Numbered from the stretch's first letter, positions 27,402 through 51,406 are shown. The stretch: 58,825 bases of DNA from an uncultured Bacilli bacterium (GCA_947624115.1 CANQIS010000001.1:1-58825); one strand, 5' to 3'. Notes: generated by a model from the sequence alone, not told the origin. Made by a program: numbers and translations.

Positions 27402-28499
27402 ATGATGACAAAAAATATAAAAAATAAAGGATTTACATTAATAGAATTATTGGCTGTAATTGTAATACTAGCCGTAATTGCTTTGATTGCCGTACCACAA
27501 ATTTTAAATATTTTAAATAGGGTAAGATTAAGTGTAGCTGAAGATACAACAAGTGGTATTATAAAATCGGCTGAGAATTATGTAACAAGTTTTATGTTAC
27601 AAAATAATGGAGGCTTTCCAGATGAAACACTTACTTTTGAATGTACGACAGATGGTTGTATATTACAAACAGAATTAGATGATTATAATCTAAATAATTT
27701 AGATGAATTAGATTTTAAAGGAACAAAGCCTAATAGTGGAACAATAACAATCGGTAATAGTGGAAGAAATATTAATACAACTAATTTAAATATTAATAAT
27801 TTTGTTTGTGCTTATTTAGATGATCAAAGTATTTGTACTGATAAAAGAGAAGTAAAAGAAGATGGAACTGTCGTTTATTTTAATCCTGTAACAGGAAAAG
27901 AATGTAGTGCAAGTGAATATACAGATACTCAAAGTGTAGCTGGTATAAAAGAAGGTTGTATGAAATGGTATATCTTTTTAGATAGTGAAGAATCAGCAGT
28001 TTATAATTTACTTTTAAATCATAATACTACATCTGATCCTGTTGTATGGAATTCTAGTGGTAATAATTATGATGGACCGAAAGAAGTAATTGAAAAATTA
28101 AAAGAAACAACAGAAAATTGGACAGGAGTACCAAATCGTACTGATAATTATTCTGTTAATTGGACTTATGATAATCAAAATTATGGATATACTGTTGATT
28201 ATAATGGCTATAGGGCTAGATTAATAGAAGCCGAAGAAGTAGCTAAAATTTTGAAATTAAATGATTTTAAACTTAATTATTCTACAGATAAACCATCTGT
28301 TGATAATTGGATACAAGCTGATAGTGTTGTTGGCCGATATTATTGGACAATATCACCTGATACTAATGGATTAACTAATATTTGGCGCATAACTCATTTT
28401 TTTTATTCACATTCTTCTAATCAAGCATTATATGATGATGGAACAACATGGGCTGGAACACGTCCTGTTATAACAATTTCTAAATCAGTTATTAAATAA
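27402..28499 (+). CDS. Prepilin-type N-terminal methylation-motif protein, copy 1 (365 aa)
   Basis: KG|FTLIELLAVIVILAVIALIAVP class III signal (G-1, F+1, E+5). C-terminal YWT.SP...GTRPVITISKS motif. Confidence 0.8.
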   Translation: MMTKNIKNKGFTLIELLAVIVILAVIALIAVPQILNILNRVRLSVAEDTTSGIIKSAENYVTSFMLQNNGGFPDETLTFECTTDGCILQTELDDYNLNNLDELDFKGTKPNSGTITIGNSGRNINTTNLNINNFVCAYLDDQSICTDKREVKEDGTVVYFNPVTGKECSASEYTDTQSVAGIKEGCMKWYIFLDSEESAVYNLLLNHNTTSDPVVWNSSGNNYDGPKEVIEKLKETTENWTGVPNRTDNYSVNWTYDNQNYGYTVDYNGYRARLIEAEEVAKILKLNDFKLNYSTDKPSVDNWIQADSVVGRYYWTISPDTNGLTNIWRITHFFYSHSSNQALYDDGTTWAGTRPVITISKSVIK

Positions 28500-28669
28500 A
28501 AGATGAAAAAAACAACTTGAAATAATTTAGTTTAATAAAAAAATGATAAACGCATGAATTAAAAAAATATGCGTTTATTTTAATTTAAATAAAGTAAAAA
28601 TAGGTATTGCAATTACCAGTTAAAGGCGTTATAATTTAAATATCATAATAAAAGGGAGGCATTTGAATT

Positions 28670-29758
28670 ATGATGACAAAAAATATAAAAAATAAAGGAT
28701 TTACATTAATAGAATTATTAGCTGTAATTGTAATACTAGCCGTAATTGCTTTGATTGCCGTACCACAAATTTTAAATATTTTAAATAGAGCAAGATTAAG
28801 TGCAGCTGAAGATACAACAAGTGGTATTATAAAATCAGCAGAAAACTATGTAACAAGTTTTATGTTACAAAATAATGGTAGTTTTCCAGACGGAACACTT
28901 ACATTTAACTGTAAAACCGATGGTTGTCAATTAAAAGAAACATTAGATGATAGTTATAATATGGATAATTTAACTACATTAGATTTTAAAGGAACAAAGC
29001 CTAATAGTGGAACCATAACAATAAGTAATAGTGGAAAAAATATTAATACAACTAATTTAAATATTAATAATTTTGTCTGTGCTTATTTAGATGGACAAAG
29101 TTTTTGTACTTATAAAAGAGAAGTAAAAGAAGATGGAACTGCCGTTTATTTTAATCCCGTAATAGGAAAAGAATGTAGTGCAAGCGAATATACAGATACT
29201 CAGAGTGTAGCAGGAACAAAAGAAGGTTGTATGAAATGGTATATCTTTTTAGATAGTGAAGTATCAGCAGTTTATAATTTACTTTTAAACCATAGTACTA
29301 CATCTGAACCTGTTGCATGGAATTCTAGTGGTAATAATTATGATGGACCTAAAGAAGTAATTGAAAAATTAAAAGAAACAACAGAAGATTGGATAGGAGT
29401 ACCAAATCGTACTGATAGTTATTCAGTTAATTGGGTTTATGATAATCAAAATGATGGATATACTGTTGATTATAATGGCTATAGGGCTAGATTAATAGAA
29501 GCAGAGGAAATAGCTAAAATTTTGAAATTAACAGACTGGGAATTTTTTTCTAAAGGTGAAAGAAAAATATCTATTCCAGATAATAAAAAATGGTTATATG
29601 GTTTTTATTGGACTTCTTCTCCATGTAAAATATTGCATAATGTTGGTGCAATTATGGTATATGATAAAACATTTACTTTTACATACCCAGATATAGAAAA
29701 TGATAGACTAAGATTAAGACCTGTCATAACAATTTCTAAATCAGTAATAAATAACTAA
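28670..29758 (+). CDS. Prepilin-type N-terminal methylation-motif protein, copy 2 (362 aa)
   Basis: Nearly identical to copy 1 over about 280 aa, then a replaced C-terminal ~80 aa ending RLRPVITISKSVINN. Confidence 0.8.
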   Translation: MMTKNIKNKGFTLIELLAVIVILAVIALIAVPQILNILNRARLSAAEDTTSGIIKSAENYVTSFMLQNNGSFPDGTLTFNCKTDGCQLKETLDDSYNMDNLTTLDFKGTKPNSGTITISNSGKNINTTNLNINNFVCAYLDGQSFCTYKREVKEDGTAVYFNPVIGKECSASEYTDTQSVAGTKEGCMKWYIFLDSEVSAVYNLLLNHSTTSEPVAWNSSGNNYDGPKEVIEKLKETTEDWIGVPNRTDSYSVNWVYDNQNDGYTVDYNGYRARLIEAEEIAKILKLTDWEFFSKGERKISIPDNKKWLYGFYWTSSPCKILHNVGAIMVYDKTFTFTYPDIENDRLRLRPVITISKSVINN

Positions 29759-30453: not shown

Positions 30454-30493
30454 TTGACAATTGTGTATAATCTGTATATAATGTATATATACA
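30454..30493 (+). promoter_or_regulatory. Promoter plus candidate YtrA/GntR operator
   Basis: TTGACA (30454-30459), 17-nt spacer, TATAAT (30477-30482). TGTATA repeated at 30464, 30473 and 30482 (9-bp phase). Inverted TGTATATA-N5-TATATACA (30473-30493). Confidence 0.5.
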
Positions 30494-30506: not shown

Positions 30507-30884
30507 ATGGAAATTATAATTAGTAATTCAAATGGTATTCCTATTTATGAACAAATTAAAGAACAAATAAAAGTCAAAATAGTTTCTAATGAATTAAAAG
30601 AAAATGAATTATTACCATCTATAAGAACTTTAGCTAAAGATCTCCGTTGTAGTGTTATAACAACAAAAAATGCTTATGAAGAATTAGTAAAAGAGGGTTA
30701 TGTAAAAAATATTCCATCCAAAGGTTTCTATGTTGCTAAAATAAATAAAGATATTGCCTTAGAAGAACAATTAAATAAGATAGAAGAACTTATGGATAAA
30801 GCAGTTACTATTGCCAAAATGAATAATATAAATAAGAAAACGCTAAATGAAATGTTAAATATATTGTATGAGGAGGATAAATAG
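30507..30884 (+). CDS. GntR-family (YtrA-subfamily) transcriptional regulator
   Basis: 125 aa; winged-HTH LPSIRTLAKDLRCSVITTKNAYEELVKEGY; short C-terminal dimerisation helix. Confidence 0.85.
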   Translation: MEIIISNSNGIPIYEQIKEQIKVKIVSNELKENELLPSIRTLAKDLRCSVITTKNAYEELVKEGYVKNIPSKGFYVAKINKDIALEEQLNKIEELMDKAVTIAKMNNINKKTLNEMLNILYEEDK

Positions 30885-30886
30885 AA

Positions 30887-31744
30887 GTGGAAAATATTTT
30901 AGAAATTAAAAATCTTTGTAAAAAATATGATAATTTTGAACTTAAAAATATATCATTTACTTTACCTAAAGGTATGATTATGGGTTTTATAGGTGAAAAT
31001 GGTGCAGGAAAGACTACAACCATAAAAGCCATATTAGATATTATTAAATCTTATAGTGGTGAAATTAAAATTTTTGGATTAGATAATCGTGAGTATGATA
31101 AAGAAATAAAACAAGATATTGGAGTCGTTTTAGATGATATGTTTTTTCCAGAGATACTTACACCAAATGATATCAATAATACCATGAAAGGTATTTATAA
31201 AAATTGGGATACTAAAATGTTTAATGATTATTTAAAAAAATTTTCTTTATTACCAAATAAACAAATTAAAACTTTTTCTAAAGGTATGAGAAAAAAACTA
31301 GAAATAGCGACCTCTCTTTCGCATCATCCTAAACTTTTAATATTAGATGAACCAACATCGGGACTTGATCCCGTAGCTAGAGCAGAAATAATTCAAATAT
31401 TTCAAAATATACTAGAAAAAGATGAGTGTTCTATTTTGCTTTCTAGTCATATTACTACTGATTTAGAACATATAGCTGATTATATAACTTTTATCAATAA
31501 CGGAGAAATTGTTTTATCAAAAACAACAAATGAATTATTGGATAAATATGGAATAGTAAAATGTACAGAAAAAGAGTTTAAAGGAATTGATAAAAAAGAT
31601 TATATTAAGTATAAAAAATTAAAATATGAATATGAGGTGTTAATTCCTAATAAAAAAGAATTTAAAACCAAATATAGTATTTCTGTAATTGATAAAATAA
31701 CATTAGATGAACTTATGGTTTTAATGATTAAGGGGGAAGAATAA
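30887..31744 (+). CDS. ABC transporter ATP-binding protein
   Basis: Walker A GENGAGKTT, signature FSKGMRKK, Walker B LLILDEPTSGLD. Confidence 0.9.
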   Translation: MENILEIKNLCKKYDNFELKNISFTLPKGMIMGFIGENGAGKTTTIKAILDIIKSYSGEIKIFGLDNREYDKEIKQDIGVVLDDMFFPEILTPNDINNTMKGIYKNWDTKMFNDYLKKFSLLPNKQIKTFSKGMRKKLEIATSLSHHPKLLILDEPTSGLDPVARAEIIQIFQNILEKDECSILLSSHITTDLEHIADYITFINNGEIVLSKTTNELLDKYGIVKCTEKEFKGIDKKDYIKYKKLKYEYEVLIPNKKEFKTKYSISVIDKITLDELMVLMIKGEE

Positions 31745-32376
31745 TGATAGGATTTATTAAAAAAGATTTAGCAGTGATTAAAAGTAATTTTAAATTACTA
31801 GGTGTATTAATTGTTATATATACAATAATGGGTTTAATGGGAAAAATGGATATATCATTTATCTTACCATTTATGTGTGTAATGATAATGATTTCATCAT
31901 TTAGTTATGATAATTATAATAAATGGGATGCATATTCTATTTCATTACCTAATGGAAGAAAAAATAGTGTAAAATCTAAATATATAACAACAATTTTAAT
32001 GACTTTTATTGTTACTATAATCACAACTATTTTATCTTTCATTATTTCGTATGTTAATATCCAATCTATTAACTATGAACAAATATTAGTAACAATGTTT
32101 GGTACAGTATTTGGAACATTATTAGTTTTAACTATTATGTATCCGATTATTTATAAATTTGGCGTTGAAAAAGCAAGAATTTGTATATTTTTACTTGTAT
32201 TTGGGATAGTTATAATTGGTAGTTTACTTGCAAATTATATAGATTTATCCAACATTTTAAAACCCTTATCATTTTTAGAAGATTATTTAATAATAATTTT
32301 AATAGTAGTAGCTATTATTATGGTTTATGTATCCTATAAAACATCAGAAAAAATATTTAGTAAAAAAGAATTTTAG
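31744..32376 (+). CDS. ABC-2-type membrane protein
   Basis: Six hydrophobic helices; start overlaps the stop of the ATPase gene. Confidence 0.7.
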   Translation: MIGFIKKDLAVIKSNFKLLGVLIVIYTIMGLMGKMDISFILPFMCVMIMISSFSYDNYNKWDAYSISLPNGRKNSVKSKYITTILMTFIVTIITTILSFIISYVNIQSINYEQILVTMFGTVFGTLLVLTIMYPIIYKFGVEKARICIFLLVFGIVIIGSLLANYIDLSNILKPLSFLEDYLIIILIVVAIIMVYVSYKTSEKIFSKKEF

Positions 32377-36661: not shown

Positions 36662-36689
36662 TTGACATTATAACAAAATATGGTATAAT
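36662..36689 (+). promoter_or_regulatory. Strong sigma-A-type promoter of the five-gene operon
   Basis: TTGACA (36662-36667), 16-nt spacer, extended -10 TGgTATAAT (36681-36689). Confidence 0.6.
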
Positions 36690-36720
36690 AATAACCAATA
36701 TTTATATAGGAGGCAAGAAT

Positions 36721-37290
36721 ATGCAAGATAAATTTTTAGAAAGCGTAAGAACTGGATTTATAAGTCAAATAGAAGAAATTATTAGTGAAACTAAATTATC
36801 TTCAGAAGCAAAGAAATTAAATGCAATAGATACTTTAGTATTAGTTAACGATAATATTAGTTCTTGGATTTCATCAATAAATGGAATGTTTCATATTGAT
36901 GAAGAATTATTAACTAAAGTTGCTGAATTAAAAAGACCTTTTGTTAGTGCTGCAAAAAAAGAAGTAGCTTCAGAAGTTGCTAAAATTATTGAAAACGAGT
37001 CAACAAATGTAACATCAAAAATTAATGATTTTATGAATGGACTAAAGAAAAAAGGTATTGACTTAGATGGTGATGATAAAAAGGAAGAAAAAAGAACAAC
37101 AACTACACTTGAAAGTGAAACACATTCAAGACCAATTGAAACATCAACTCGTGATTCAGAATCTTTATTTAGTTTAAGTAGACAACGTGTTTTAAAAAGA
37201 GAGGTAGAAAGACCAAGAAGAAGTACTTCTGATTGTCCACCATATAGTTGTGGAGGAAGCTCTGGAGGTTGTGGCGGAGGCGGTTGCTAG
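36721..37290 (+). CDS. Unknown 189-aa protein with C-terminal Cys/Gly tail
   Basis: AGGAGG RBS. Helical acidic N-region, Ser/Thr/Arg-rich linker, terminal CPPYSCGGSSGGCGGGGC (37234-37287). Confidence 0.7.
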   Translation: MQDKFLESVRTGFISQIEEIISETKLSSEAKKLNAIDTLVLVNDNISSWISSINGMFHIDEELLTKVAELKRPFVSAAKKEVASEVAKIIENESTNVTSKINDFMNGLKKKGIDLDGDDKKEEKRTTTTLESETHSRPIETSTRDSESLFSLSRQRVLKREVERPRRSTSDCPPYSCGGSSGGCGGGGC

Positions 37291-37320
37291 CCACTTTTTA
37301 TCTTTGAGGGGGGAACAATA

Positions 37321-37860
37321 ATGGATGAAAATTTAATGCAAAAAGCCATTTATGATTTACTTAAGGCTATGGGTGAAAATCCAGACCGTGATGGATTAAA
37401 GGATACTCCCAAAAGAGTTGCTAAAATGTACTCTGAAATATTATCATATCCTAACTTTAATTACACAACATTTGAAGATAAATATGATGATTTAATTATG
37501 GTTAAAAATATTGAATTTTGTTCAATGTGCGAGCATCATTTAATGCCTTTTTATGGTATAGTTCATATTGCATATATTCCTAATAAAAAAATTATAGGTT
37601 TAAGTAAAATTGCTAGAGTAGTTGAAAAATATGCTAGAAAACTTCAAGTGCAAGAGAGAATGACTGATGAAATTATGGAAGATTTAAAGAAAAATCTCGA
37701 TACTGATAATATTGCAATTTATATAGAAGCAAAACATATGTGTATGATTTCCAGAGGAGTAAAAAAGGAATTAACTAGTACAGTAACAACTAAATTTAGT
37801 GGTTTATTTAAAAATGAGCGAAAAAGTGAATTTTTATTTTTAATTGGAAAAGGTAATTAA
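37321..37860 (+). CDS. folE: GTP cyclohydrolase I (FolE type)
   Basis: GLKDTPKRVAKMY, CSMCEHHLMPFYG, LQVQERMT signature blocks. Confidence 0.9.
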   Translation: MDENLMQKAIYDLLKAMGENPDRDGLKDTPKRVAKMYSEILSYPNFNYTTFEDKYDDLIMVKNIEFCSMCEHHLMPFYGIVHIAYIPNKKIIGLSKIARVVEKYARKLQVQERMTDEIMEDLKKNLDTDNIAIYIEAKHMCMISRGVKKELTSTVTTKFSGLFKNERKSEFLFLIGKGN

Positions 37861-37861
37861 A

Positions 37862-38845
37862 ATGAATTATCAAAAATATATGGAAATTGCTTTAGAAGAA
37901 GCAAAAAAAGGAATTTTATGTGGCGAACAACCATATGGAGCAGTATTATTAGCAGATGGTAAAATTGTATCAGTTGCTCATAATCAAGTAATGTCTTCTA
38001 ATAATAATTTAAATCATGCAGAAATAGTTGCCATAACGAATTATTTAAAAAGTGTGAAATCTAAACCAAAAGATTTAACTTTAATTACTACTTGTGAGCC
38101 CTGTGTCAATTGTTTTGGAACAGCCATAAAATTAGGTGTAAATAGATTTGTATATGGGTCTAGTCTAGAAACAGCTATTAATTATGGATCTAATGATATA
38201 CACATTGGACTAGAAGATTTTAAATTAATATATAATTTTGAAATTATTGATAATGTTTTAAAAGACGAATGTGATGCGATGCTTGAAAACTTCTATTTTA
38301 AGAATAATGTAGTAACATATTCAAAAGGTACTAGTGAAGAAATTTATTGGATGAAAAGAGCTTTAGAAATTGGCAGAAAAGGAATGTTAGAAAAAGAGGA
38401 ACTGCCTATTGGAATTGTTTTGGTAGCAGGAGATGAAATATTAAGTGAAACTTGTACTATGACATATACGCTCAATTCTCCAATAACTCATGGTGATTTT
38501 ATGGCCTTATATAATGCAGAAAGAAAAGTATACTCACCAACTTGCAAAAGACCTTTAGTTTTATATAGTTCATTAGAACCACATTTATTAGGTTTTGGTG
38601 CTGCAATAAAATGTAAGGTTGACAAAGTTGTTTTTGGTTTAGAGGCAATACCTGATGGTGGCTCTTGTTATTTGCCAAACATAGTAGGAATTAAAGAAAG
38701 AATACCGAAAGTAGTTGGTGGAGTTTTAAGAGATGAACAGTATGAACTAATGAAGGAATTTTTGAATACTCATGAAGAAAATCGTGTTGGATATGATTAT
38801 GCGAAAACACTTGTGAAATTGTATGAAAGTGAAAAAAAGAGGTAG
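37862..38845 (+). CDS. Tandem CDA-fold deaminase: GuaD/TadA-like active N-domain plus degenerate C-domain
   Basis: N-half has HAEIVAI and TCEPCVNC zinc ligands with a GuaD-like PYGAVLLADGKIVSVAHNQV. C-half keeps the fold pattern but reads THGDFMAL and LEPHLLGFG. ATG 37862 preferred over the track start 37844. Confidence 0.75.
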   Translation: MNYQKYMEIALEEAKKGILCGEQPYGAVLLADGKIVSVAHNQVMSSNNNLNHAEIVAITNYLKSVKSKPKDLTLITTCEPCVNCFGTAIKLGVNRFVYGSSLETAINYGSNDIHIGLEDFKLIYNFEIIDNVLKDECDAMLENFYFKNNVVTYSKGTSEEIYWMKRALEIGRKGMLEKEELPIGIVLVAGDEILSETCTMTYTLNSPITHGDFMALYNAERKVYSPTCKRPLVLYSSLEPHLLGFGAAIKCKVDKVVFGLEAIPDGGSCYLPNIVGIKERIPKVVGGVLRDEQYELMKEFLNTHEENRVGYDYAKTLVKLYESEKKR

Positions 38846-38850
38846 ATAAT

Positions 38851-39465
38851 ATGAATTTTGATTATTTCTATTCTAGACAAAAGAGTTATTTTGGTGAAGC
38901 ACCATCTGATGGACTTGTAACTATGCTTAAAGAATATGATGTGAATATTGGAAAAGCTTTAGACATAGGTGCAGGTGAGGGAAGAAATTCTATTTATCTT
39001 GCTTCATTAGGATTTGATGTGACATCAATCGAACCAACGAAAGTTGGGGCAAATAAAATTATAGAGAAATCTAATAAACTAAATTTGAATATTAATGTCA
39101 TAAATTGTGATTATCTTTCAGAAAATTTGAACGAAAAGTATGATTTTATTATAGCAGGAACATCGCTAGATCATATGGATAAACAATATTTAGATAATGC
39201 AGTTAATAAGTTAAAAAATAGTTTAAATATTGGTGGTTTAATTTATATCGTTGTATTTACAAAAAAAGATCCTGGTTATTTAAAACAACTTGATAATGCA
39301 AGTGAATGTTCTGGATTTATTAAACACTATTTTGAAGAAAATGAATTAAGAGATTATTTTAAAGATTTTGATATATTATATTATGATGAGTATATAAAAC
39401 CTGATAATACTCATGGAAAACCTCATGTTCATGGTAAGGCAAAAATAATTGCAAGGAAAATATAA
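38851..39465 (+). CDS. Class I SAM-dependent methyltransferase, TehB-like
   Basis: Motif I ALDIGAGEGRNSIYLA closely resembles TehB (LDLGCGNGRNSLYLA). Confidence 0.75.
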   Translation: MNFDYFYSRQKSYFGEAPSDGLVTMLKEYDVNIGKALDIGAGEGRNSIYLASLGFDVTSIEPTKVGANKIIEKSNKLNLNINVINCDYLSENLNEKYDFIIAGTSLDHMDKQYLDNAVNKLKNSLNIGGLIYIVVFTKKDPGYLKQLDNASECSGFIKHYFEENELRDYFKDFDILYYDEYIKPDNTHGKPHVHGKAKIIARKI

Positions 39466-39466
39466 T

Positions 39467-39964
39467 ATGGAATATGAACTATTATTAGAAAAAATAATTA
39501 AATTACTTTCTAAAACAAATTATGTTGTGCTTGCTACTGCAAGTAAAGATGGTGTTGTAACTGCTAGCAAAATGTGTATGATAGCAAATGTGACAACATT
39601 ATATTTTCAAACTGATTCCAATTTTGAAAAAGCAAGAAACATAATGGAAAATCCAAATGTAGCAATTACTATTGAAAATATTTATTTCAAAGGACAAGCT
39701 ACAATAATTGGGCATCCATCTGAAAATAAATTTTTTGTAGAAAAAATGAAAGAAAAGCACTATCAAACATATGAAAATTATACTGATTTACCTAATCAAA
39801 TTTTAATTGAAGTAAAACTTACTGAATGTAGAATATGGGGAATATGGCAAAATAATGGTATTGGTGAAGATAAAATTCATAGAGAAGAATCCATTAAAGT
39901 ATTAAATTTAAAAAATAAACAATTAACCAAAATAAAGTGTGATAACTTAAAAGGCGGTTATTAA
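39467..39964 (+). CDS. Pyridoxamine-5'-phosphate-oxidase-fold (flavin-binding split-barrel) protein
   Basis: LLSKTNYVVLATASKDGVVTASKMC...LYFQTDSNFEKARNIMENPNVAI pattern typical of PNPOx-like proteins. ATG 39467 preferred over the track start 39449. Confidence 0.6.
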   Translation: MEYELLLEKIIKLLSKTNYVVLATASKDGVVTASKMCMIANVTTLYFQTDSNFEKARNIMENPNVAITIENIYFKGQATIIGHPSENKFFVEKMKEKHYQTYENYTDLPNQILIEVKLTECRIWGIWQNNGIGEDKIHREESIKVLNLKNKQLTKIKCDNLKGGY

Positions 39965-40079: not shown

Positions 40080-40991
40080 TTGTCAAACAAATGTTCTTAT
40101 TGTATAATGCTCTTATCAAGGAGGTTTTATAAGAATCAAAACAAATTAGAAACGATTTCAAATTTATTTGAAGGTAAGGAAATAAGAAGCATTTGGAATA
40201 GTGAAAAGGAAGATTATTATTTTAGTGTAGCAGATGTTATTGGAGCATTAACTGAAAGTCCTAGACCAAGAAAATATTGGAATGCTTTAAAAACAAAATT
40301 AAATAATGAAGGAAGTAAGTTGTCCTCAAAATTGGGACAACTGAAATTAAAATCTCAAAAAGATGGTAAAAGTTATTTAACAGATGTTTTAGATACTAAA
40401 GAAATATTAAGATTAATTGAATCAGTTCCTTCGCCTAAAGCCGAACCTCTTAAAATTTGGCTTGCTAATTTAGGTAGTTAAAGAATTGATGAGGTATTTG
40501 ATCCTGAAATTGCTATTAAAAGAGCAATTAATTATTATCGAAAACGAGGATATTCTGATAAATGGATTGAAACAAGATTAAAAGGAATACTAGACAGAAA
40601 TAAATTAATTGATATATGGAAAGAGGGAGGTATTTCAAAAGATTATGAATATGGAATACTAACCAATGAGATATATAAAGAGTGGTCTGGTATGAAAGCA
40701 AATGAATATAAATCATATAAAAGTATTAGAAAAGAATCTTTAAGAGATAATATGTCTGATATAGAAGTGGCACTTACCGATTTAGGAGAAATTGATACTC
40801 GTGAACTTGCTAAAGAGTATAAACTATATGGATTAGAGCAAAATAAAAAAATTGCTAAAATGGGTGGACATGCTGCCAAGGTTGCTAAAGAAGATATTGA
40901 AAAAAATTTAGGTAAATCAGTAATTAGTAATCAAAATAACCTTCCATATCAATATTTAGATGAAAAATATAAACTAGAAATAAAAAAATAG
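40080..40991 (+). pseudogene. Bro-N-domain protein, disrupted
   Basis: A single frame reads ..FEGKEIRSIWNSEKEDYYFSVADVIGAL..RKYWNALKTKL..SVPSPKAEPLKIWLANLGS*RIDEVF.. with an in-frame TAA at 40479-40481. TTGTCA-17-TATAAT (40080-40108) and AAGGAGG (40118-40124) are not followed by an in-frame canonical start. Confidence 0.65.
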
Positions 40992-41132
40992 AATGATAAT
41001 CAGTCCTCCTAAGTTGATTAATAACGGTTTAGATACTATGTTAATAAAATGTATAATATTGTTGTCATCATATAAATATATTTACTAGTTATTATATAGC
41101 ATATATAATTAATTTAGGAGGATATAAGTTAT

Positions 41133-41882
41133 ATGAAGAAAAAAAGTGTTTTAATTATTAGTTTTATTATTATTTTAATAATAGTTTATTTTAGTTATAA
41201 GGGTTTTAATTTGTATTATTATAATGTAAATAATATTATGACTCAGGATGCTAAAAATAATGTTGAACAATTTAACATAAGTAACACTATTACTATTAAA
41301 CATAGTTTAGTTGAAGCAAATGAATATTTTGAATATCAAAATATGAAAATTAGAAATGATTTTAAAGATTATAGTCGATTAGAACAAAATATAGAAAACT
41401 CTTCACCAAAACTAATTTTAAAAAATCAAGATAACAATACTACCAAATCTTTTTGGATGGGAATTGCTGATACTTATGTAGATATGCTAAAAGCCGATAA
41501 AACATTATTTGGAACAGACAATAAAAGAATTTCAAATATTGATTTTAGTAATGTTTTGAAGAACAATAATATAAATAATGATATCGATTTGTTTAACTAT
41601 TTATCAAAACAAAAAGACATTAAGAGTAATATATTTACTAGTGTTAAGGAAATGAAAGAAAATTATACAATTCAGTTTATGGTTTCAGTAATAATGCCAA
41701 CTGTAGATAGCATTACTTTAATAAATGGTGATTATGATGGCTATATATTTAATATAAAAAATGGTATGAAAGAAGTTAATATTATGAAAAATAATAAGCG
41801 ATATGTATTTATGTTTATTGATGAAACTGATTTAAATGATGAATACTTAAAAGATATTTTAAGTACTGTTGTTATAGAGTAA
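41133..41882 (+). CDS. Hypothetical membrane-anchored protein (249 aa)
   Basis: AGGAGG RBS; N-terminal TM segment; no motif recognised. Confidence 0.55.
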   Translation: MKKKSVLIISFIIILIIVYFSYKGFNLYYYNVNNIMTQDAKNNVEQFNISNTITIKHSLVEANEYFEYQNMKIRNDFKDYSRLEQNIENSSPKLILKNQDNNTTKSFWMGIADTYVDMLKADKTLFGTDNKRISNIDFSNVLKNNNINNDIDLFNYLSKQKDIKSNIFTSVKEMKENYTIQFMVSVIMPTVDSITLINGDYDGYIFNIKNGMKEVNIMKNNKRYVFMFIDETDLNDEYLKDILSTVVIE

Positions 41883-41932
41883 TATAATTAATTAAGAAAT
41901 TAGAAAAATAATGTATATTATAATTTGTGGGA

Positions 41933-42338
41933 GTGATAGACACGAAAGTTTTAAGTATAACGGAACCATATGCAACATTGATTAAAAATGGTATAAAGAC
42001 TATAGAAACTAGAAGTTGGAAAACAAATTATAGAGGTAAATTATATATACATGCTAGTTCTACTAATATATCAAAAGAATGTAAATAAAATGCAGAATTG
42101 ATGTCTTTAGTAGATATAAATGATTTGAATTTGGGAAAAATAATATGTTCATGTGAATTAATAGATTGTATTAAAATGACAGATGAATTTATAAATAATA
42201 TAAAAAATAGAAAAAATGAATATCTTACAGGTATATATAAAAATGGTAGATATGCTTGGATATTAAAAAACTATAGAACCACTAGATGAACCAATAAAAG
42301 CTAAAGGTAAATTAAATATTTGGAAATTTAACATTTAA
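41933..42338 (+). pseudogene. ASCH-domain protein, disrupted
   Basis: VIDTKVLSITEPYATLIKNGIKTIETRSWKTNYRGKLYIHAS.. has an in-frame TAA at 42086-42088. The C-terminal ..IEPLDEPIKAKGKLNIWKFNI is reached only after a frameshift at the A6 run 42265-42270. Confidence 0.65.
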
Positions 42339-42488
42339 ATAAATTTGATGAGGTAAACCATATATGAGGTTTGCTTTTTTTGATATAATTAAATTAGTAG
42401 TTATTTGTAAAAACATTTTTACAAAAAGTAATAGATATTTTATTTAAAAATATTTTTAAATAATGTATATTTATTTTGGAGGTGCTAT

Positions 42489-42929
42489 ATGACATTAGGT
42501 GAAAAAATTATTGAACTAAGAAAAAAGAAAGGACTAACACAAGAAAATTTAGCAGAACAATTAAATATTTCTAGACAAACTTTATTAAATTGGGAAAAAA
42601 ATAATACTATTCCTGATATATTACAAGCAAAAAATATCGCAAAATTTTTCAATATTAGTTTAGATGACTTATTGGATAACAACTTGGAAATCGAATGTAA
42701 AAATAATTCCAATAACATATTACAAAATCTGATTGGTAAAAATTGCTATTTACTTATGCATGAAAATTATGCCGATGCATTTATCAATTATAATGCTAAT
42801 GTAAAAATTTTAGATGTTAGTGATAGTTTTATAAAAATCGAATATAAAAAAGGAAAAGAGATAATAAATAAAATTATTGATTTAGATATTATCATTTCAA
42901 TCAAATTAGTTGAGGAGGCAGATAAATAA
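42489..42929 (+). CDS. XRE-family HTH regulator with C-terminal beta-rich domain
   Basis: LTQENLAEQLNISRQTLLNWEKNNTIPD. Confidence 0.8.
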   Translation: MTLGEKIIELRKKKGLTQENLAEQLNISRQTLLNWEKNNTIPDILQAKNIAKFFNISLDDLLDNNLEIECKNNSNNILQNLIGKNCYLLMHENYADAFINYNANVKILDVSDSFIKIEYKKGKEIINKIIDLDIIISIKLVEEADK

Positions 42930-43234
42930 TGGAAGTGTTTTTATTATTAATATTGATATTATTCTATTTTGAATTAAATAGTAAGATTAAGATGATTTTA
43001 AATAATCAAAACAAAAGTAATAAAAAAGATTATTCATTATTAAAAAAATTAGTTGGTAGGCAAATAGAGATTGATACTGATGATGAATATGAATTAGCAT
43101 TTGGTAGTAAAAAAAGAGGAATATTAAAAAATTTTAATGATACTTGGATTATCCTAGAAACACAAAACAAAGAAAAAAAAGAAACGATTTATTATAGACT
43201 AAGTAATATTAAAAGTATCGTTGAAGTTAAATAA
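42929..43234 (+). CDS. Small membrane-anchored protein paralogous to the C-domain of the preceding regulator
   Basis: 1-nt overlap with the upstream stop. N-terminal TM segment. LKKLVGRQIEI...IKSIVEV parallels LQNLIGKNCYL...IISIKLV. Confidence 0.55.
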   Translation: MEVFLLLILILFYFELNSKIKMILNNQNKSNKKDYSLLKKLVGRQIEIDTDDEYELAFGSKKRGILKNFNDTWIILETQNKEKKETIYYRLSNIKSIVEVK

Positions 43235-44692: not shown

Positions 44693-46153
44693 ATGGAAGT
44701 ATTTGAAAAATTGACGAAGCAGATATCTGAAACCAAATATTTAAATGCTGAAAATTCTTATCGCTATCGACCTATTATGCGATGTTTTTATAAAAATTAC
44801 GAACAGTTAGAATATTGGTTATACAAAGAAGATGTCTATCGCGAATTAAAAGAAAATGACATATTTAAAGATTACACACTTGAAGATTGTGAAAGAGATT
44901 TGGAAACTTTAACTGAATGGATGAGTTTGTCAAAAATGCAAGATACTAAAAATGCAACATCTATTGAAGAATTTAAAAATAAAAAATTTCGCTATCAGTT
45001 GACTGAATATGCTACTGTAATTGAAAGAATGACGATTTCTTTAGAAGAAATGAAAATTAAAACTGCATCATTAGAGCCAAAATTATTTGATAGAATTAGA
45101 ATTTCAATTGCAAAATTTGAAAATATTGACACTTTAACAGAAGAAGAAGTAATAGATTTATGGAACAATTTAAATGATGATTTTACTAAATTAAACGAAA
45201 ACTATCAAGATTTTCTAAAAAAATTTAATGAACCAAAATCTGAGGAATTATTACAAAGTGTTTTATTTTTACAATTTAAAACCGAAATTGTAAAATATTT
45301 AAGAGAATTTATAAAAGGCTATCAAAAAAATATTTATGCTATCAAAGATAGTATTAGTAACATCGATTCCCTAACCATTAATAATTTTATTAATAAAATA
45401 TGTGAACATTATAAAAAGAATCCTATGTTAAATCAAAACTTTGATTATGATTATTTCAAAGAAATAAATTTTGGAAAAATATCCAATATTTTTAAATGGT
45501 TTATTGGTAATGAAATGGATATAAGTGAAGGCGAAAAATTAATAAATACAACAGATAATATCATTGTTAAAATTACAAAATATGCTAGTTCTTTATTAGA
45601 ATTACATGGAAATATGACAAATCGTAAAGAAGAATATAAATATTTATGTAAATTGTTTGATAAAATAGATGATATTGCACTAGCGCATAAATATGCTTCT
45701 GTTATTTTTGGTATAGAAAATGTAAGGCATTATATAGGAAATTCTAATATAAATACCGATGTAATTGTAAATACTTATGATATTCCACCTATCGAAATTC
45801 TCTTATCATCACGAACTATTAATCGTAAGGAAAAAGTTCATATAGCACCTATAATTGATAAATCAAAAGAAAAACAAAAATTATTAGAAGAACATCGAGA
45901 AATTCAAAAGCAAAATAAAGAAATTTTAAAACATCTTATTAAAGATAAAAAAATTATTTTGAAAGATGAAATGAATTTAACAAAATATGAGCGAAAATAT
46001 ATTCAAAAATTACTTGGAACACCAAACAGAAAAGAAACTGAATTTGGATTAAACTATAGTATTAATAAAAGCGATGGTAAATGTAAAATTATTTCAGAAG
46101 ATGGAATCTTTTATTTAGATAGTATCGAAATAGAATTTGAAGGTGATATATAA
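44693..46153 (+). CDS. jetA: Wadjet JetA-like (kleisin-like, DUF2397/TIGR02677-type)
   Basis: First gene of the four-gene cassette. N-terminal YRYRPIMRCFY resembles the YRAIMR motif of this family. Confidence 0.7.
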   Translation: MEVFEKLTKQISETKYLNAENSYRYRPIMRCFYKNYEQLEYWLYKEDVYRELKENDIFKDYTLEDCERDLETLTEWMSLSKMQDTKNATSIEEFKNKKFRYQLTEYATVIERMTISLEEMKIKTASLEPKLFDRIRISIAKFENIDTLTEEEVIDLWNNLNDDFTKLNENYQDFLKKFNEPKSEELLQSVLFLQFKTEIVKYLREFIKGYQKNIYAIKDSISNIDSLTINNFINKICEHYKKNPMLNQNFDYDYFKEINFGKISNIFKWFIGNEMDISEGEKLINTTDNIIVKITKYASSLLELHGNMTNRKEEYKYLCKLFDKIDDIALAHKYASVIFGIENVRHYIGNSNINTDVIVNTYDIPPIEILLSSRTINRKEKVHIAPIIDKSKEKQKLLEEHREIQKQNKEILKHLIKDKKIILKDEMNLTKYERKYIQKLLGTPNRKETEFGLNYSINKSDGKCKIISEDGIFYLDSIEIEFEGDI

Positions 46154-47328
46154 TGGATGTGAATACCAAAGAATTAGAATATTTATTAAATAATTATTGG
46201 TGTTTAAAAGAACAAAGACCAGATGTTTATTTTAATATAAAAAATAAATTAGATTATTACAAAGATTTTATTCAAACTAAAATGGGTAGTAAATTGCTTG
46301 TAAATGATCGATTTATTAAATTAGAAAAAATACCTGCTACTCCTAAAGCGTATATGGGTATAATGGATTTTACTAATCCTTTAGAATATGTACTATTATT
46401 TATCATTTTAATATTCCTAGAAGATAAACCAAGATTGGAACAATTTATATTATCAAATTTAATTGAGTTTATTACTAATACAGCTACAACTTTAAAATTA
46501 GATAATCTTCCCGATTGGAATCGCTTGCAGCATCGAAAATATTTGGTAAATGTTATTAATCATTTAAGTGAATTAGGTATTATTAAAGTAGTTGAAGAAA
46601 AAAATATATTCACTGAAGACATAAAAGCGGAAGCTTTATATGAAACCACGGGACTTGCTAATTACTATGTTAGAGAATTCAAAAATAATATTTTAGAATA
46701 TAGGGAATTGAATGATTATGTCAATGATGAATTTACTGACCAAAATGAAAATATAGGCGATGTTAGACGCTATAAGGTTTATCGTCATTTACTTTTTGAA
46801 CTTTCGAGCTACACTGATGAATTAACAGAATTTGAAATAGATTATTTAAGAAAATTTCGTAATAGTATTAATAGTGAATTAAGTAAATATACACTTTCGG
46901 AATTAGAATTAACTAAAGACATGGCTGTTTTAATGTATGATGAAGAAACAAAAGAAAAATTTGATTTTCCTAATGGTAAAGCAATTTCAGATATTGTTTT
47001 ATTAATAAATAATTACTTATTAAACAAATTAAATAATAATGAATTTAACTTAGAAAATGATGAAACTATTATAATTTCTAAAGAACAATTATATCGAATT
47101 ATAAAGGAAACTAGAAAAGATTATTTAGATTATTTAAGTAAAAAATATCGTGAGTTGTCTATTGATAATTTTATCAAAGAGGTTATTTCTTATATGCAAG
47201 AGTATGATTTTATAAAAGAAATAGAATTAGGTTATAAAATATACCCTAGTGTTTCTAAATTGGTAGGATATATTCCAAAAGACGATACTGAACAATTAAA
47301 TTTATTTGGAGGTGATGATAATGAATAG
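46153..47328 (+). CDS. jetB: Wadjet JetB-like (DUF2398/TIGR02678-type)
   Basis: 1-nt overlap with jetA; size and position fit the family. Confidence 0.65.
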   Translation: MDVNTKELEYLLNNYWCLKEQRPDVYFNIKNKLDYYKDFIQTKMGSKLLVNDRFIKLEKIPATPKAYMGIMDFTNPLEYVLLFIILIFLEDKPRLEQFILSNLIEFITNTATTLKLDNLPDWNRLQHRKYLVNVINHLSELGIIKVVEEKNIFTEDIKAEALYETTGLANYYVREFKNNILEYRELNDYVNDEFTDQNENIGDVRRYKVYRHLLFELSSYTDELTEFEIDYLRKFRNSINSELSKYTLSELELTKDMAVLMYDEETKEKFDFPNGKAISDIVLLINNYLLNKLNNNEFNLENDETIIISKEQLYRIIKETRKDYLDYLSKKYRELSIDNFIKEVISYMQEYDFIKEIELGYKIYPSVSKLVGYIPKDDTEQLNLFGGDDNE

Positions 47329-50300
47329 ATTGAAAGTAACTAAAATTGGCTTGTTGAATTTTTGGCTTTATGACGAAGAAGAATATGATTTTTATGGTGG
47401 TAAATTAATTTTAAGAGGAAGTAATGGTAGTGGTAAATCTGTAACCATGCAATCATTTATCCCTTTAATTTTAGATGGAAATAAGAGCCCAGATCGCTTA
47501 GATCCATTTGGCTCTAAAGAAAGAAAAATTGAAGATTATATAATTGGTGATGCTGAATCAGGTCAAAAAGAGGAATCGACTGCTTACTTATATATGGAAA
47601 TATACGATGAACAAAATAATCGCTATGTGACGATTGGTTTAGGTTTTCGAGGAAGAAAAGGACGACCAGTTGAGTCTTGGGGTTTTGCTTTAAAAGATGG
47701 TAAAAGAGTTGGAAAAGATTTTTTCCTTTATAAAGATGCTATTAATAAAATTCCTTTAACTAAAAATGAATTAAAATCTCGTTTAGGAATGATTAACGAA
47801 TTTACTGATAGTGCAAAAGATTATAAGGCCATGGTTAATCGTTTATTATTTGGTTTTCCAAATTTAGATACTTATGATGAATTTATCAAATTGCTACTAC
47901 AATTGCGAAGTAATAAATTATCAAAAGATTTAAAACCAACTAACTTAGTAAATGTCTTAAATACGGTTTTACAACCATTAACAGAAGAAGATTTACGACC
48001 TTTATCAGAAGCAATTGAACAAATGAATAAAACTAAAGAACAAATCGAAAAATTAGAAAAAAATTATAAATCACTAAATGAATTTTTAAAAACATATCGT
48101 AATTATAATGAAATAAACTTATTAACCAAAACTAAAAACTATAAAAAAGTAAGTGATGATTATAATGTATTAATTAAAAATATTGATAATTCACAAAAAC
48201 AATTAGATAATTACAAACAATTATTAATTAATAAAAGAGTTCGTCAAGATGAGGTCATTGAAAAAATTAAATTAGATGAAGCTACTAAAGAACAATTAGA
48301 TAATAATGATTTAAAGAAAAAAGTTGAATCATTAAATAAAATTGAGCAAGTAATTATTACTTTAGAAGAAAAAATAGATGAAATTGATAAAAAAATTGAT
48401 ATTAATGAAAAAGATAAAATTGAAACTAGTAAGAGATTATCCGTCACTGACGAAGAAATTTATAAATTAAAAAAAGAAATAGAAGATATAACTATCGATT
48501 TAAAATCGTTAGCAGACTATAGTTATTTTGATGAAATTATTTTCTTTATTGATGAAATGTCAGAAAATTTTGATAAAAATATTTCTTTCGATACTATTTT
48601 TATGTCCATAAAACATTATAAAGACAAAATAAATAAACTTCTCGAGTTATTAGAAGAAGAACAAAGAATTGTTTCCGAAAGTGAATCTTCGAGAATGAAA
48701 CTGGAAAAATTAGTTCAAACATATAAAAATATCGAACATGATCTTAATAATAAATATGAAAATTTTAAAGAAAGTATTATGGCTTGGGAAGAAGATTTTA
48801 TTAATAAGTTAAATAATAACGATTATTTGAAATTAGATGATTTTTCTAAAAAACAAATATATGATTTAATGAATGATTATAAATCAGAAAATTATGCTGA
48901 AGTAACAAAAATTTATCAAAGTTGTGGACAAGAATTAATTAACGAAACAATCAATCAAAAGTTGATTTTAGAAAATAAAAAAGTTGCTAAACAAAAAGAG
49001 TTAGATGAATTAAAAGTCGAATATGAAAAAATAGAAAATTCCGATGATTTTGAAATACCATCATATAATATTGAAACAGATAATATATTAATAGAAAATA
49101 ATATTACAAGTATACCTTTTTATAAATGCGTTGAATTTAAAGATAATATAGATGAAAAAATTAAAAATCATATTGAATCAACTTTATTAGATTTAAATAT
49201 TTTAAATGCTAAAATAATTAAAGAAAGTGATATACCAATTGTTGAAAAATTAGATGCTCAAATATTATATTTAAAAAAATCAACTAAAAAGAAAGATAAC
49301 TTATTAAAATATTTTAATATTGTATTAGATGAAAAAATAAATATTAGTGAGGAATATATAAAATCTATTTTAGAATCTATTAGTATTAATCAAGACGATT
49401 TAGTATCTATTTCTGATAATGGTATTTCCAAAATTGATTTTTTGAATTCTATTTCTGATAATAAATATAAACAAACATTTATTGGCTATTTAAAAAGATT
49501 AGAATATAAAAATAATAAATTAAAAGAAATAAAATCACAAGTAGAAGTTTTATCCAACGAAATAATTAATATAAATAATTTAACAAATAATCTTGAAAAT
49601 AAAATATCTGTAATTGAATTAGAAATTAAAAATTTGCCATCTAGCAAATTTATAGATAGCATTTTATATGAAATAAGTAATCTTAATATGTCATTAGAAT
49701 GGAATGATAAAAATCAAAAAGATTTAGAAAAAGAATTAGAATTAATCGATAATCAGTTAAGAGAAATAAAAAATCAAATTTTAGATAATCAGCAAGGATT
49801 ATATATACCTCTTAATTTACAATCGTATAAAGAAGTATTTAAAAATGTATGTAATATAAATGAAATATTATTTAAACTTCAAAAAAATTATAATTCATAT
49901 ATCAGTAAATTAGAAATACAATATAGTCAAAAAGAAAAAATAGAAGCACTCCAAGATAATATAGATTATCTAGAATCCGATAAAACTGAAAAAGATAATG
50001 AATTACAAATTAATATAAATAATAAAAATACTATTAATGAGATTTTGAAAACAAAAGAATATACAGATCAAAAAGAAAAATTAATGCAACTAGAAAATGA
50101 ATTAAATAATTTAAATATTGAAAAAGAAAATTTAATTAGAGAACTATCACAAATTGAAACACAAATAAATTATGAAGAAAAAAGTTTAAATAATTTATTG
50201 CAAGAAAAAGAGCAACAATTAAAAGAGTTAAATGTATATAAAGAAATTTTTTTAAGGGAATATAAATTAAATTATGTTTATCAAAATGATATTATCGATA

Positions 50301-51406
50301 TTGATACAACTATAAAAAATATATTGAAAGATATTAAAGATAAAAAAGAGATGTCTTTAAGTGAAGCATTAGATAAATTTTACTCTGATTATAATCATTA
50401 TGCATTAGAATTAAATGAATATTCTTTAAAAAATATTAAGTTATTTTATGATTATACAACTGATGATGAAAAGATAAAAAAGATATACGATGACAATGTT
50501 CGTGCTGATGTAACTTGTATGTATCAAGGTATAAAACTAAACATTATTAAACTATGTGAAAAATTAGAAAATGATATAGAAGAAAATAGAGATTTAATAA
50601 GTGAACAAGATCGTCATTTATTTGAAGATATATTATTAAATACAGTTGGTGATAAAATTAGAAATAGGATTAATTCTTCCAATGAATGGATAGATAAAAT
50701 AAATGATATTATGGCTAAAATGCAAGAAAATAGTGCTTTAAGCTTTAAATTAAAATGGAATAGTATTTCAGCTGAAAGAGAAGGTGAAATCGATACAAAA
50801 GAATTAGTCAGAATTTTAAAAATCGATCCAAAATTATTAAAAGATAGTGATACAGAAAAATTAGGTAATCATTTTCGAATAAAAATAAAAAAAGCGGAAG
50901 AATTATATCAAGATTCATATATATCTTTTACAAAAATAATTCAAGATGTCTTAGACTATCGTACATGGTTTACTTTTCAATTACAATATCAAAGGAAAGG
51001 CATGAGTAGTTTTAATGAATTAACTGACAAAACATATTCAAAATTAAGTGGTGGTGAAAGAGCTAAAAGCATGTATATTCCACTTTTTGCAAGCGTCTAT
51101 GCTAAATTAAAATCAGCCAAAGATAATTCTTTAAGGCTTATTGCTTTAGATGAAGCCTTTGCTGGTGTCGATGAAGATAACATAAGAGAAATGTTTGGTA
51201 TTCTAAAATATTTAGATATTGATTTTGTGATAAATTCCCAACTTTTATGGGGTGATTATGATACGGTGGAAGACTTGTCAATTTGTGAGTTAATAAGACC
51301 AAATAATTCAAATGTGGTAACTGTTGAAAGATATCGTTGGAATGGTAAATATAAAGAAATTATAAATAATCGAAAAAGTTTTAATGAGCAAATAGAGAAT
51401 GCATAA
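47321..51406 (+). CDS. jetC: Wadjet JetC-like SMC-family ATPase
   Basis: GGAGGTGA RBS then ATG 47321. Walker A GSNGSGKS, very long coiled-coil middle, C-terminal LSGGERAKS and Walker B LIALDEAFAGVD. Confidence 0.85.
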   Translation: MNRLKVTKIGLLNFWLYDEEEYDFYGGKLILRGSNGSGKSVTMQSFIPLILDGNKSPDRLDPFGSKERKIEDYIIGDAESGQKEESTAYLYMEIYDEQNNRYVTIGLGFRGRKGRPVESWGFALKDGKRVGKDFFLYKDAINKIPLTKNELKSRLGMINEFTDSAKDYKAMVNRLLFGFPNLDTYDEFIKLLLQLRSNKLSKDLKPTNLVNVLNTVLQPLTEEDLRPLSEAIEQMNKTKEQIEKLEKNYKSLNEFLKTYRNYNEINLLTKTKNYKKVSDDYNVLIKNIDNSQKQLDNYKQLLINKRVRQDEVIEKIKLDEATKEQLDNNDLKKKVESLNKIEQVIITLEEKIDEIDKKIDINEKDKIETSKRLSVTDEEIYKLKKEIEDITIDLKSLADYSYFDEIIFFIDEMSENFDKNISFDTIFMSIKHYKDKINKLLELLEEEQRIVSESESSRMKLEKLVQTYKNIEHDLNNKYENFKESIMAWEEDFINKLNNNDYLKLDDFSKKQIYDLMNDYKSENYAEVTKIYQSCGQELINETINQKLILENKKVAKQKELDELKVEYEKIENSDDFEIPSYNIETDNILIENNITSIPFYKCVEFKDNIDEKIKNHIESTLLDLNILNAKIIKESDIPIVEKLDAQILYLKKSTKKKDNLLKYFNIVLDEKINISEEYIKSILESISINQDDLVSISDNGISKIDFLNSISDNKYKQTFIGYLKRLEYKNNKLKEIKSQVEVLSNEIININNLTNNLENKISVIELEIKNLPSSKFIDSILYEISNLNMSLEWNDKNQKDLEKELELIDNQLREIKNQILDNQQGLYIPLNLQSYKEVFKNVCNINEILFKLQKNYNSYISKLEIQYSQKEKIEALQDNIDYLESDKTEKDNELQININNKNTINEILKTKEYTDQKEKLMQLENELNNLNIEKENLIRELSQIETQINYEEKSLNNLLQEKEQQLKELNVYKEIFLREYKLNYVYQNDIIDIDTTIKNILKDIKDKKEMSLSEALDKFYSDYNHYALELNEYSLKNIKLFYDYTTDDEKIKKIYDDNVRADVTCMYQGIKLNIIKLCEKLENDIEENRDLISEQDRHLFEDILLNTVGDKIRNRINSSNEWIDKINDIMAKMQENSALSFKLKWNSISAEREGEIDTKELVRILKIDPKLLKDSDTEKLGNHFRIKIKKAEELYQDSYISFTKIIQDVLDYRTWFTFQLQYQRKGMSSFNELTDKTYSKLSGGERAKSMYIPLFASVYAKLKSAKDNSLRLIALDEAFAGVDEDNIREMFGILKYLDIDFVINSQLLWGDYDTVEDLSICELIRPNNSNVVTVERYRWNGKYKEIINNRKSFNEQIENA

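Follow-up and report, generated by a model that had tools for sequence, protein, structure and literature searches.

A conserved five-gene operon of uncultured gut Bacilli with GTP cyclohydrolase I, a tandem deaminase and a cysteine-tailed protein: a candidate pteridine-tailoring route

GTP cyclohydrolase I (FolE) normally feeds the synthesis of folate, biopterin or 7-deazaguanines. In a 58,825-nucleotide stretch of DNA from an uncultured Bacilli bacterium (GCA_947624115.1, CANQIS010000001.1:1-58825), hereafter the window, it is encoded in an operon with a tandem deaminase, a methyltransferase, a flavin-type protein and a protein that ends in a cysteine- and glycine-rich tail. What would such a gene set make, and what might the tail be for? 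The five-gene operon is real, conserved and so far undescribed, and it is restricted to a few uncultured gut bacteria. It most likely represents a specialised FolE-started pteridine pathway, in which a dithiol-tailed protein is paired with an inactivated deaminase domain, without described counterpart. Its features are as follows.

36662..36689, + strand: sigma-70-type promoter, TTGACA-16 nt-TGgTATAAT, a 12/12 match with an extended -10 TG
36721..37290, + strand: Cys/Gly-tailed partner protein of 189 aa, the operon's first gene, with C-terminus CPPYSCGGSSGGCGGGGC
37234..37287, + strand: Cys tail CPPYSCGGSSGGCGGGGC, core motif C-G-x(3-6)-C
37321..37860, + strand: FolE, GTP cyclohydrolase I of the zinc type (PF01227 and TIGR00063)
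37862..38302, + strand: N-domain of the tandem deaminase, GuaD/guanosine-deaminase-like, predicted active (HAE and CEPCxxC)
38312..38845, + strand: C-domain of the tandem deaminase, a deaminase fold inactivated as judged by its motifs (HGD ... LEP[H/C]LLG)
38851..39465, + strand: TehB-fold S-adenosylmethionine (SAM)-dependent methyltransferase (TehB Pfam) of a FolE-linked subfamily
39467..39964, + strand: PNPOx-fold (flavin split-barrel) protein (PNPOx_N), presumed to carry out a redox step

Gene order, promoter and distribution

The operon comprises five plus-strand open reading frames (ORFs) between 36721 and 39964 in the ORF listing, which gives alternative starts for the deaminase (37844/37862) and for the PNPOx-fold protein (39449/39467). 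Because their homologues start MNY.../MEY..., the ATGs at 37862 and 39467 are taken as the true starts, and with these the intergenic gaps are 30, 1, 5 and 1 nt. An initial annotation of this DNA had described five co-directional ORFs with the same gaps behind a strong TTGACA-16-TGgTATAAT promoter, and both descriptions are confirmed. A purine-rich Shine-Dalgarno-like stretch lies 5' of every start codon of the operon. The promoter, which ends 31 nt before the first ATG, is the sole 12/12 hit within 35.5-41.5 kb, and the whole window has two perfect matches where 0.30 are expected (two are reached in 5 of 100 shuffles). Both are located immediately 5' of operons; the second, TTGACA-N17-TATAAT at 30454-30482, directly precedes a GntR and ABC-2 transporter operon (30507-32376). 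The leader is only ~25 nt long, which leaves no room for a riboswitch, and no Rfam family was found in the window; a riboswitch or leader RNA 5' of the operon was therefore rejected. No terminator-like site was detected within or 3' of the operon.

Co-conservation of the gene set extends to some dozen distinct loci, which belong to AT-rich metagenome-assembled genomes (MAGs) of uncultured gut 'Tenericutes'/Bacilli, and the same genes occur together in every locus with sufficient DNA. In an all-against-all comparison of 12 loci, the operon genes were the only genes shared. The flanks vary between genomes and consist of housekeeping genes (topA with hisS/aspS; upp with a P-type ATPase; HU with ychF; rpsF-ssb-rpsR), and the window around the operon is likewise ordinary chromosome, with PolC, RF1, PrmC, L19 and signal peptidase. 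On these comparative data, chance adjacency is rejected. The deaminase and the methyltransferase are present in all compared loci, FolE in 8 of the 12 and the PNPOx-fold gene in nine.

The tandem deaminase itself is rare. It has 42 relatives among 5.8 billion protein clusters, all of them effectively unnamed, and is represented by three sequences at 50% identity, one of them partial, in 1.84 billion proteins that were read exhaustively. Among 185,579 species genomes, five contain it, and these are gut MAGs of uncultured 'Tenericutes', Bacilli or 'Clostridia'; a scan of JGI metagenomes gave four loci. A mobile-element origin was rejected, as no operon member was found in phage, plasmid or viral collections, including IMG/VR.

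In all loci the operon lacks the partner genes expected of folate, queuosine, riboflavin and toxoflavin synthesis (QueD/E/C, FolB/K/P, GTP cyclohydrolase II with RibD), and none is present among the window ORFs scanned with Pfam. The remark in the initial annotation that FolE stands here without folate-, queuosine- or biopterin-type partners is thus borne out for folate and queuosine. So is its statement that no characterised pathway has this gene set: full-text searching of the literature found no paper on the set, and no curated model describes it.

Enzymes of the operon and their sister clusters

Profile scans with Pfam and NCBIfam support each of the family calls made at the outset, namely FolE, tandem deaminase, TehB-like methyltransferase and PNPOx fold. 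FolE matches GTP_cyclohydroI (PF01227) with 226 bits and exceeds the NCBI equivalog cut-offs of TIGR00063 (212.2 vs 181.6) and NF006826 (223.6 vs 162). The motifs CEHHLMPFYG and KHMCM are both present, and their CEHH and HMCM align with Listeria FolE (4uqf, 167 bits). Two metagenome contigs differ from the window only in that FolE is called with 142 aa (L001, 1872-2300) and 175 aa (L002, 2120-2647) instead of 179, which may reflect strain-level damage or an assembly error.

The 327-aa deaminase has two dCMP_cyt_deam_1 matches. In its N-domain, H52-A-E54 and C78-E-P-C81-x-x-C84 are invariant, and the best solved relative by both sequence and fold is the guanosine deaminase GSDA of A. thaliana (E 4.5e-14 for the fold), followed by TadA and the guanine deaminases NE0047/GuaD; these comparisons used the sequence and a model with a predicted local distance difference test score (pLDDT) of 88. 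N42, C78 and the segment YGSSLETAINYGSND112 align without gaps to GSDA (N69, C107 and its AI..G..D segment), whereas B. subtilis TadA aligns with YG..E.AI..G..D only with gaps. In GSDA, Asn69 anchors the substrate and Cys107, which precedes E-P-C, contacts the 2-amino group (PMC9739398). The N-domain shares HAE, (C)EPCxxC, the Asn and YG..E.AI..G..D with the CDA-fold guanine/guanosine deaminases as a group (B. subtilis GuaD 1wkq, A. thaliana GSDA 7dbf, N. europaea NE0047), and the Asn, CEPC and AI..G..D features bear out the earlier description of this enzyme as GuaD-like. Those enzymes are homodimers that act in the context of purine catabolism, whereas the present one is fused to a second, inactivated deaminase domain and is encoded with FolE and a methyltransferase. 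The C-terminal Tyr that caps the active site of GSDA (PMC9739398) has no proven counterpart in the tandem deaminase; Y313 and Y321 are invariant in the C-terminal helix of the tandem pseudo-dimer.

The C-domain is 44% identical to a 168-aa deaminase encoded in another FolE/methyltransferase cluster (L151), where the motifs are intact (HGE...PCIMC). Relative to that protein, the catalytic Glu is replaced by Asp, the first Cys by His and the second Cys by Gly in the window, so that HGD stands for HAE and LEP[H/C]LLG for PCxxC. This domain nevertheless holds more invariant residues than the N-domain. Judged by sequence, it is an inactivated orthologue of the intact L151 enzyme, and the two halves stem from different lineages, each of which is found stand-alone in sister FolE clusters; a stand-alone relative of the N-domain (P0073) adjoins FolE in L149, and an exhaustive protein search returned single-domain relatives of each half. 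The initial annotation had recognised the second domain as ligand-less and had missed its origin. E. coli-type two-domain cytidine deaminase and ADAT2/ADAT3 are also active/inactive deaminase-fold pairs, in which, as here, one catalytic unit and one unit without catalytic residues form a pseudo-dimer. Plant Des/Cda with an inactive C-domain is a further example (PMC3239186). The present enzyme differs from these in that its halves represent two lineages and that the inactive half is the better conserved.

The methyltransferase matches the TehB Pfam family (PF03848) with 76.8 bits against a cut-off of 20.4, and its best solved relative is H. influenzae TehB (3m70, 87.6 bits with a profile). It has the fold and the SAM-binding motifs in common with TehB, but differs in a distinct C-terminal HG..H.H, in its constant linkage to FolE and in scores that fall far below all TehB equivalog cut-offs (88.3 vs 303, 78.6 vs 219.5, 66.2 vs 218). 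The subfamily comprises at least 293 clusters, and its motifs S-E (followed by Cys in all but L149), HYF and HG..H.H are invariant. In six of six loci sampled outside the tandem-deaminase clade (L149, L151, L152/L153, L156, L157), the methyltransferase gene is located beside or near FolE. Since the subfamily is FolE-linked wherever it was sampled, a GTP-derived substrate is favoured over a chalcogen.

The gene content of these sister clusters bears on the nature of that substrate. The order in L149 is FolE, the P0073 deaminase, a class-III aminotransferase, a membrane-anchored alpha/alpha-toroid protein, a member of the methyltransferase subfamily and a double PTPS-like protein (55 bits); the PTPS-like and aminotransferase genes point to pterin side-chain chemistry and a pteridine-type GTP-derived substrate. 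Further genes that are usual in the sister clusters encode dTMP-kinase-like proteins, an AP_endonuc_2 TIM barrel and one or two homologous toroid proteins. Mobilisation or recombinase genes (Mob_Pre, serine recombinases) adjoin some of these clusters. The sister clusters form a large unnamed family in Clostridia-type gut MAGs. The toroid proteins were considered as Zn-thiolate enzymes of the prenyltransferase/LanC-like, thiol-alkylating kind and rejected; their alignment contains no invariant Cys or His, and for this reason a functional link between toroid and Cys tail was dropped. The window operon is a rare, lineage-restricted variant of this broad, uncharacterised family of FolE-methyltransferase(-deaminase) clusters of gut Bacillota. 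In the variant, the N-type deaminase is fused with an inactivated C-type one, genes for toroid, TIM-barrel and kinase proteins are lacking, and the Cys-tailed protein and the reductase are present.

The last gene of the operon encodes a protein that matches PNPOx_N (PF01243) with 51.6 bits against 28.1, scores 19.1 against a cut-off of 180 with the PdxH equivalog and has weak similarity to structures of 'general stress protein 26'. In L006 it is replaced by an SDR gene downstream, and in L010 an SDR gene lies upstream, where the contig ends within the ORF after the methyltransferase. The initial annotation identified the PNPOx-fold partner in the window correctly and missed this substitution in other genomes. 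That PNPOx-fold protein and SDR alternate in the same operon would fit a single redox step. Neither protein served as a guide to the substrate: the SDRs give generic matches (40 bits with the 'Pteridine reductase' model against a cut-off of 288), so that their subfamily was dropped as a sign of a pterin, and the PNPOx relatives, 'general stress protein 26' structures only, were dropped likewise. The PNPOx-fold protein and its homologues have an invariant Cys eight residues before the C-terminus, within I-x-C-[DK]-N-x-K-G-G-Y, and most of these proteins end in KGGY.

The cysteine-tailed protein and the proposed route

The most constant partner in the operon is not FolE but the Cys/Gly-tailed protein. 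A Cys-tailed ORF lies directly 5' in the same position in all 13 tandem-deaminase loci and in none of the six loci of sister FolE-methyltransferase clusters, and as background, unrelated loci totalling 1.04 Mb gave such a tail in 9 of 3360 ORFs. The initial annotation listed all five genes and overlooked this constancy. The protein has no Pfam or NCBIfam match and only 27 homologue clusters, all unnamed. In its AlphaFold2 model, residues 1-115 form a four-helix bundle (pLDDT >90) and residues 122-189 have a pLDDT <50, which corresponds to ~70 residues predicted to be disordered, an arm (about 120-171) and then the tail; Foldseek with the model gave no match below E = 0.5. Among 28 close homologues, C177 and C184 show a conservation of at least 90%, and together with G179 they are invariant in a set of 17 sequences. 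All tails share C-G-x(3-6)-C, which falls within the last ~20 residues and usually follows an acidic stretch: SCGGSSGGCGGGGC in the window, SGCGGGSTGCGGGC in L004, SGCCGGSSGCS in L006, DCGNSGCGG in L008, SGCGQESGCGGRSSGGCGSSGGGC in L010, SCGGGGGGCEGGR in L012 and SGCGGIIGCGC in L013. L067 has two tandem Cys-tailed genes 5' of FolE (5239-6441), with tails SCGSSPRCY and SCGHTRGCSY. A profile of the body of the window protein matches L004 and L067, L006 weakly, and not L008, L010 or L013, where the tail nonetheless persists; the body thus drifts while the tail is held, and distant operons retain of this protein the tail alone. The last 60 nt of the coding region have 55% GC, compared with 24% for the genome. 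Thioredoxin reductase has a tail of this general kind, GCUG, which contains selenocysteine. Selenocysteine in the present tails is ruled out, since the stop codon is TAG or TAA in all of them and never TGA.

Taken with the enzymes, this protein suggests a FolE-started route that tailors a pteridine or guanine ring by deamination, methylation and a redox change, with the Cys tail as thiol partner. The initial annotation had put forward a deaminated, methylated and redox-tailored pteridine as a plausible product, an interpretation that is partly supported. We hold the present reading tentatively, with a probability of roughly 0.4; its substrate, its sequence of steps and the function of the tail are what we infer from the families and their linkage. 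FolE would open GTP to give 7,8-dihydroneopterin triphosphate. The deaminase N-domain would then strip the 2-amino group from the 2-amino-4-oxo-pyrimidine ring, giving a lumazine/xanthine-type ring; this is proposed because the N-domain is guanine-deaminase-like and the 2-amino group is common to guanine and pterins. The TehB-fold methyltransferase would methylate the heterocycle, and the flavin split-barrel protein, or the SDR in some genomes, would set its oxidation state. The Cys arm is placed in the route as a dedicated thiol partner because tail protein, reductase and the zinc-ligand-depleted C-domain co-occur, co-vary and are confined to this cluster type. Most likely the arm would carry or accept the heterocycle and be docked by the dead deaminase domain; a role as a dithiol reagent only would be less likely.

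Several observations weigh against this route. The operons of L008/L072 and L010 lack FolE, so that FolE may be a mere supplier of precursor, or the substrate may be guanine or guanosine and not a pterin; its membership of the operon, asserted in the initial annotation, holds for the window, and in these other loci it is dispensable. The best curated model for the deaminase is that of TadA (NF008113, 128.6 against a cut-off of 150; C-domain alone 61.9). The PNPOx-fold and SDR proteins are generic and silent on substrate, the sister clusters operate without the tail protein, and the operon contains no enzyme with an evident C-S bond-forming function.

A further claim, which we consider doubtful, is that the Cys-tailed protein is a new kind of carrier: the heterocycle would be bound covalently to the thiols at the end of the arm and tailored while tethered, with the C-domain as docking or attachment module. 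If this is true, the outcome would be either a protein-bound lumazine or pteridine prosthetic group on a swinging arm, or a small molecule made on a carrier protein, as with LysW and the pearlin scaffolds. The LysW amino-group carrier, the pearlin scaffold peptides and the dithiol tail of class I ribonucleotide reductase all present a functional group at the C-terminus of a flexible acidic arm, and they are small, dedicated proteins encoded with the enzymes they serve. The Cys-tailed protein has no sequence or fold relation to these, and its operon lacks a ligase-type enzyme.

Known small-molecule routes offer parallels to the proposed chemistry. In toxoflavin and riboflavin synthesis, a GTP-derived pyrimidine is deaminated and N-methylated, with lumazine-type intermediates, and the enzymes are GTP cyclohydrolase II and a RibD-type deaminase-reductase. 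The logic of deamination and methylation is alike, but the cyclohydrolase here is of type I and the deaminase scores 36.7 with the RibD model against a cut-off of 156. The pepteridine island of Photorhabdus, plu2792-2799, also starts at a dedicated GTP cyclohydrolase I, tailors a pterin and involves a carrier (thiolation) domain (PMC5384830). Its enzymes are a PTPS, a pteridine reductase, a pyrophosphokinase and a nonribosomal-peptide-synthetase-like T-C/E2 protein (PMC5384830). It differs from the present operon in that no deaminase or methyltransferase is mentioned in PMC5384830, and it has no Cys-tailed protein.

The best surviving alternative, although an unlikely one, is that the pathway makes a free small molecule and the Cys-tailed protein acts as a chaperone or buffer of zinc or another soft metal for FolE and the deaminase in a zinc-poor gut niche. 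Type IA FolE and CDA-fold deaminases are zinc enzymes. The zinc motifs are seen in both proteins here, and the tail is flexible, Cys/Gly-rich and preceded by acidic residues, as in metal-binding tails. However, sister clusters with FolE and an intact zinc deaminase do without the tail protein, the tail protein is kept where FolE is absent, and it co-varies with the zinc-ligand-depleted domain and not with the zinc-containing ones.

Slightly less probable again is that the Cys-tailed protein is the precursor or scaffold of a product like a ribosomally synthesised and post-translationally modified peptide (RiPP), the core of which would be modified, for example by S-methylation or oxidation, with FolE giving a cofactor or building block. 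The layout is compatible with such a precursor, in that a long conserved 'leader' body is followed by a variable linker and by a C-terminal 'core' that is short and hypervariable but keeps its Cys residues; the precursor-like genes are duplicated in L067, and the composition recalls the Gly/Ser/Cys core of microcin B17. In the AlphaFold2 model, however, the 'leader' is a folded bundle of 115 residues. Against a RiPP, no version of the operon encodes a YcaO, LanB/C/M, radical-SAM, MNIO, protease or exporter protein, and the same types of methyltransferase and deaminase occur with FolE in clusters that have no peptide, so that a peptide is unlikely to be their substrate. In L012, a mouse-gut Bacilli MAG, a radical-SAM protein with weak HxsC/MoaA-like hits is encoded just 5' of the tail gene, and a second ORF with a Cys/Ser/Gly-rich C-terminal tail lies further 5' (coordinates of the two items 1909-2445 and 3728-4654). 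The radical-SAM gene does not recur beside the other operons, which counts against the RiPP explanation and led to its rejection as a maturase; the second tailed ORF was not seen in other loci either.

We regard as improbable that the tandem deaminase edits tRNA as a single-chain, ADAT2/ADAT3-like active/inactive pair, the edited base being modified by the methyltransferase. Among NCBIfam models, that of TadA scores best with both halves, the fold comes close to that of TadA structures, one source labels a member of the family tRNA(adenine34) deaminase, and several loci lie among translation genes. The score nevertheless falls under the TadA cut-off, the protein is a two-domain one and not a single-domain homodimer, the CEPC and AI..G..D features of the N-domain are of the guanine/guanosine-deaminase type where TadA aligns with gaps, and the repeated tight linkage to FolE and to the FolE-linked methyltransferase has no place in A-to-I editing.

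TehB methylates tellurite and selenite, and dithiols react with selenite, and the methyltransferase has the TehB fold; detoxification of chalcogens or metalloids, with selenite, tellurite or arsenite captured by the dithiol tail, reduced by the reductase and methylated by the TehB-like enzyme, is nonetheless very improbable, given that all three TehB equivalog cut-offs are missed widely, that the subfamily is FolE-linked in all six sister loci and that FolE and a guanine-type deaminase would have no role. An anti-phage or stress function through depletion or alteration of GTP/guanine pools, which the initial annotation had offered as an alternative, is just as improbable: the operon adjoins Bro-N/Xre genes and a Wadjet system in the window and some sister clusters lie on mobile elements with nucleotide-kinase-like genes, but PADLOC gave only generic domain-level hits and no significant match for the five operon proteins or one sister cluster, no member occurs in phage, plasmid or viral collections, and housekeeping genes (topA/hisS, HU/ychF, upp) surround the operon in other genomes.

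A FolE-started pteridine route thus remains the preferred explanation. Reduced-genome gut bacteria afford few biosynthetic operons, yet they keep this FolE-headed set, and no function is recorded for any of the wider FolE-plus-methyltransferase clusters of gut Bacillota. Both pteridines and lumazines show redox activity and fluorescence, and host immune receptors bind some of them. The product, once known, would add a branch to the GTP/pteridine metabolism of the gut microbiome, and the invariant dithiol tail and the inactivated deaminase domain paired with it may represent a new protein-carrier or protein-modification mechanism, a possibility that can be tested.

Surroundings of the operon

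Downstream of the operon, Bro-N and Xre-type genes (40080-43234) precede a Wadjet-type system at 44693-52652, which consists of DUF2397, DUF2398, a 1366-aa SbcC/SMC-like ATPase and a JetD-like protein (DUF3323/DUF2399). At 53165-54216, 14 kb from the operon, a UDG-superfamily glycosylase gene overlaps by 4 nt that of a Ham1/RdgB-type (ITP/XTP) pyrophosphatase; pyrophosphatases of this type clean deaminated purine nucleotides, which may matter with a guanine-type deaminase present. Elsewhere in the window, a C39-peptidase ABC exporter of the bacteriocin/double-glycine type (3791-5884) is encoded behind a 275-aa protein without family (both within 2872-5884), and two adjoining paralogous proteins of ~360 aa with N-terminal prepilin-type methylation motifs are located at 27402-29758. 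In L067, a DarT-family gene lies slightly downstream of the operon (10519-11079).

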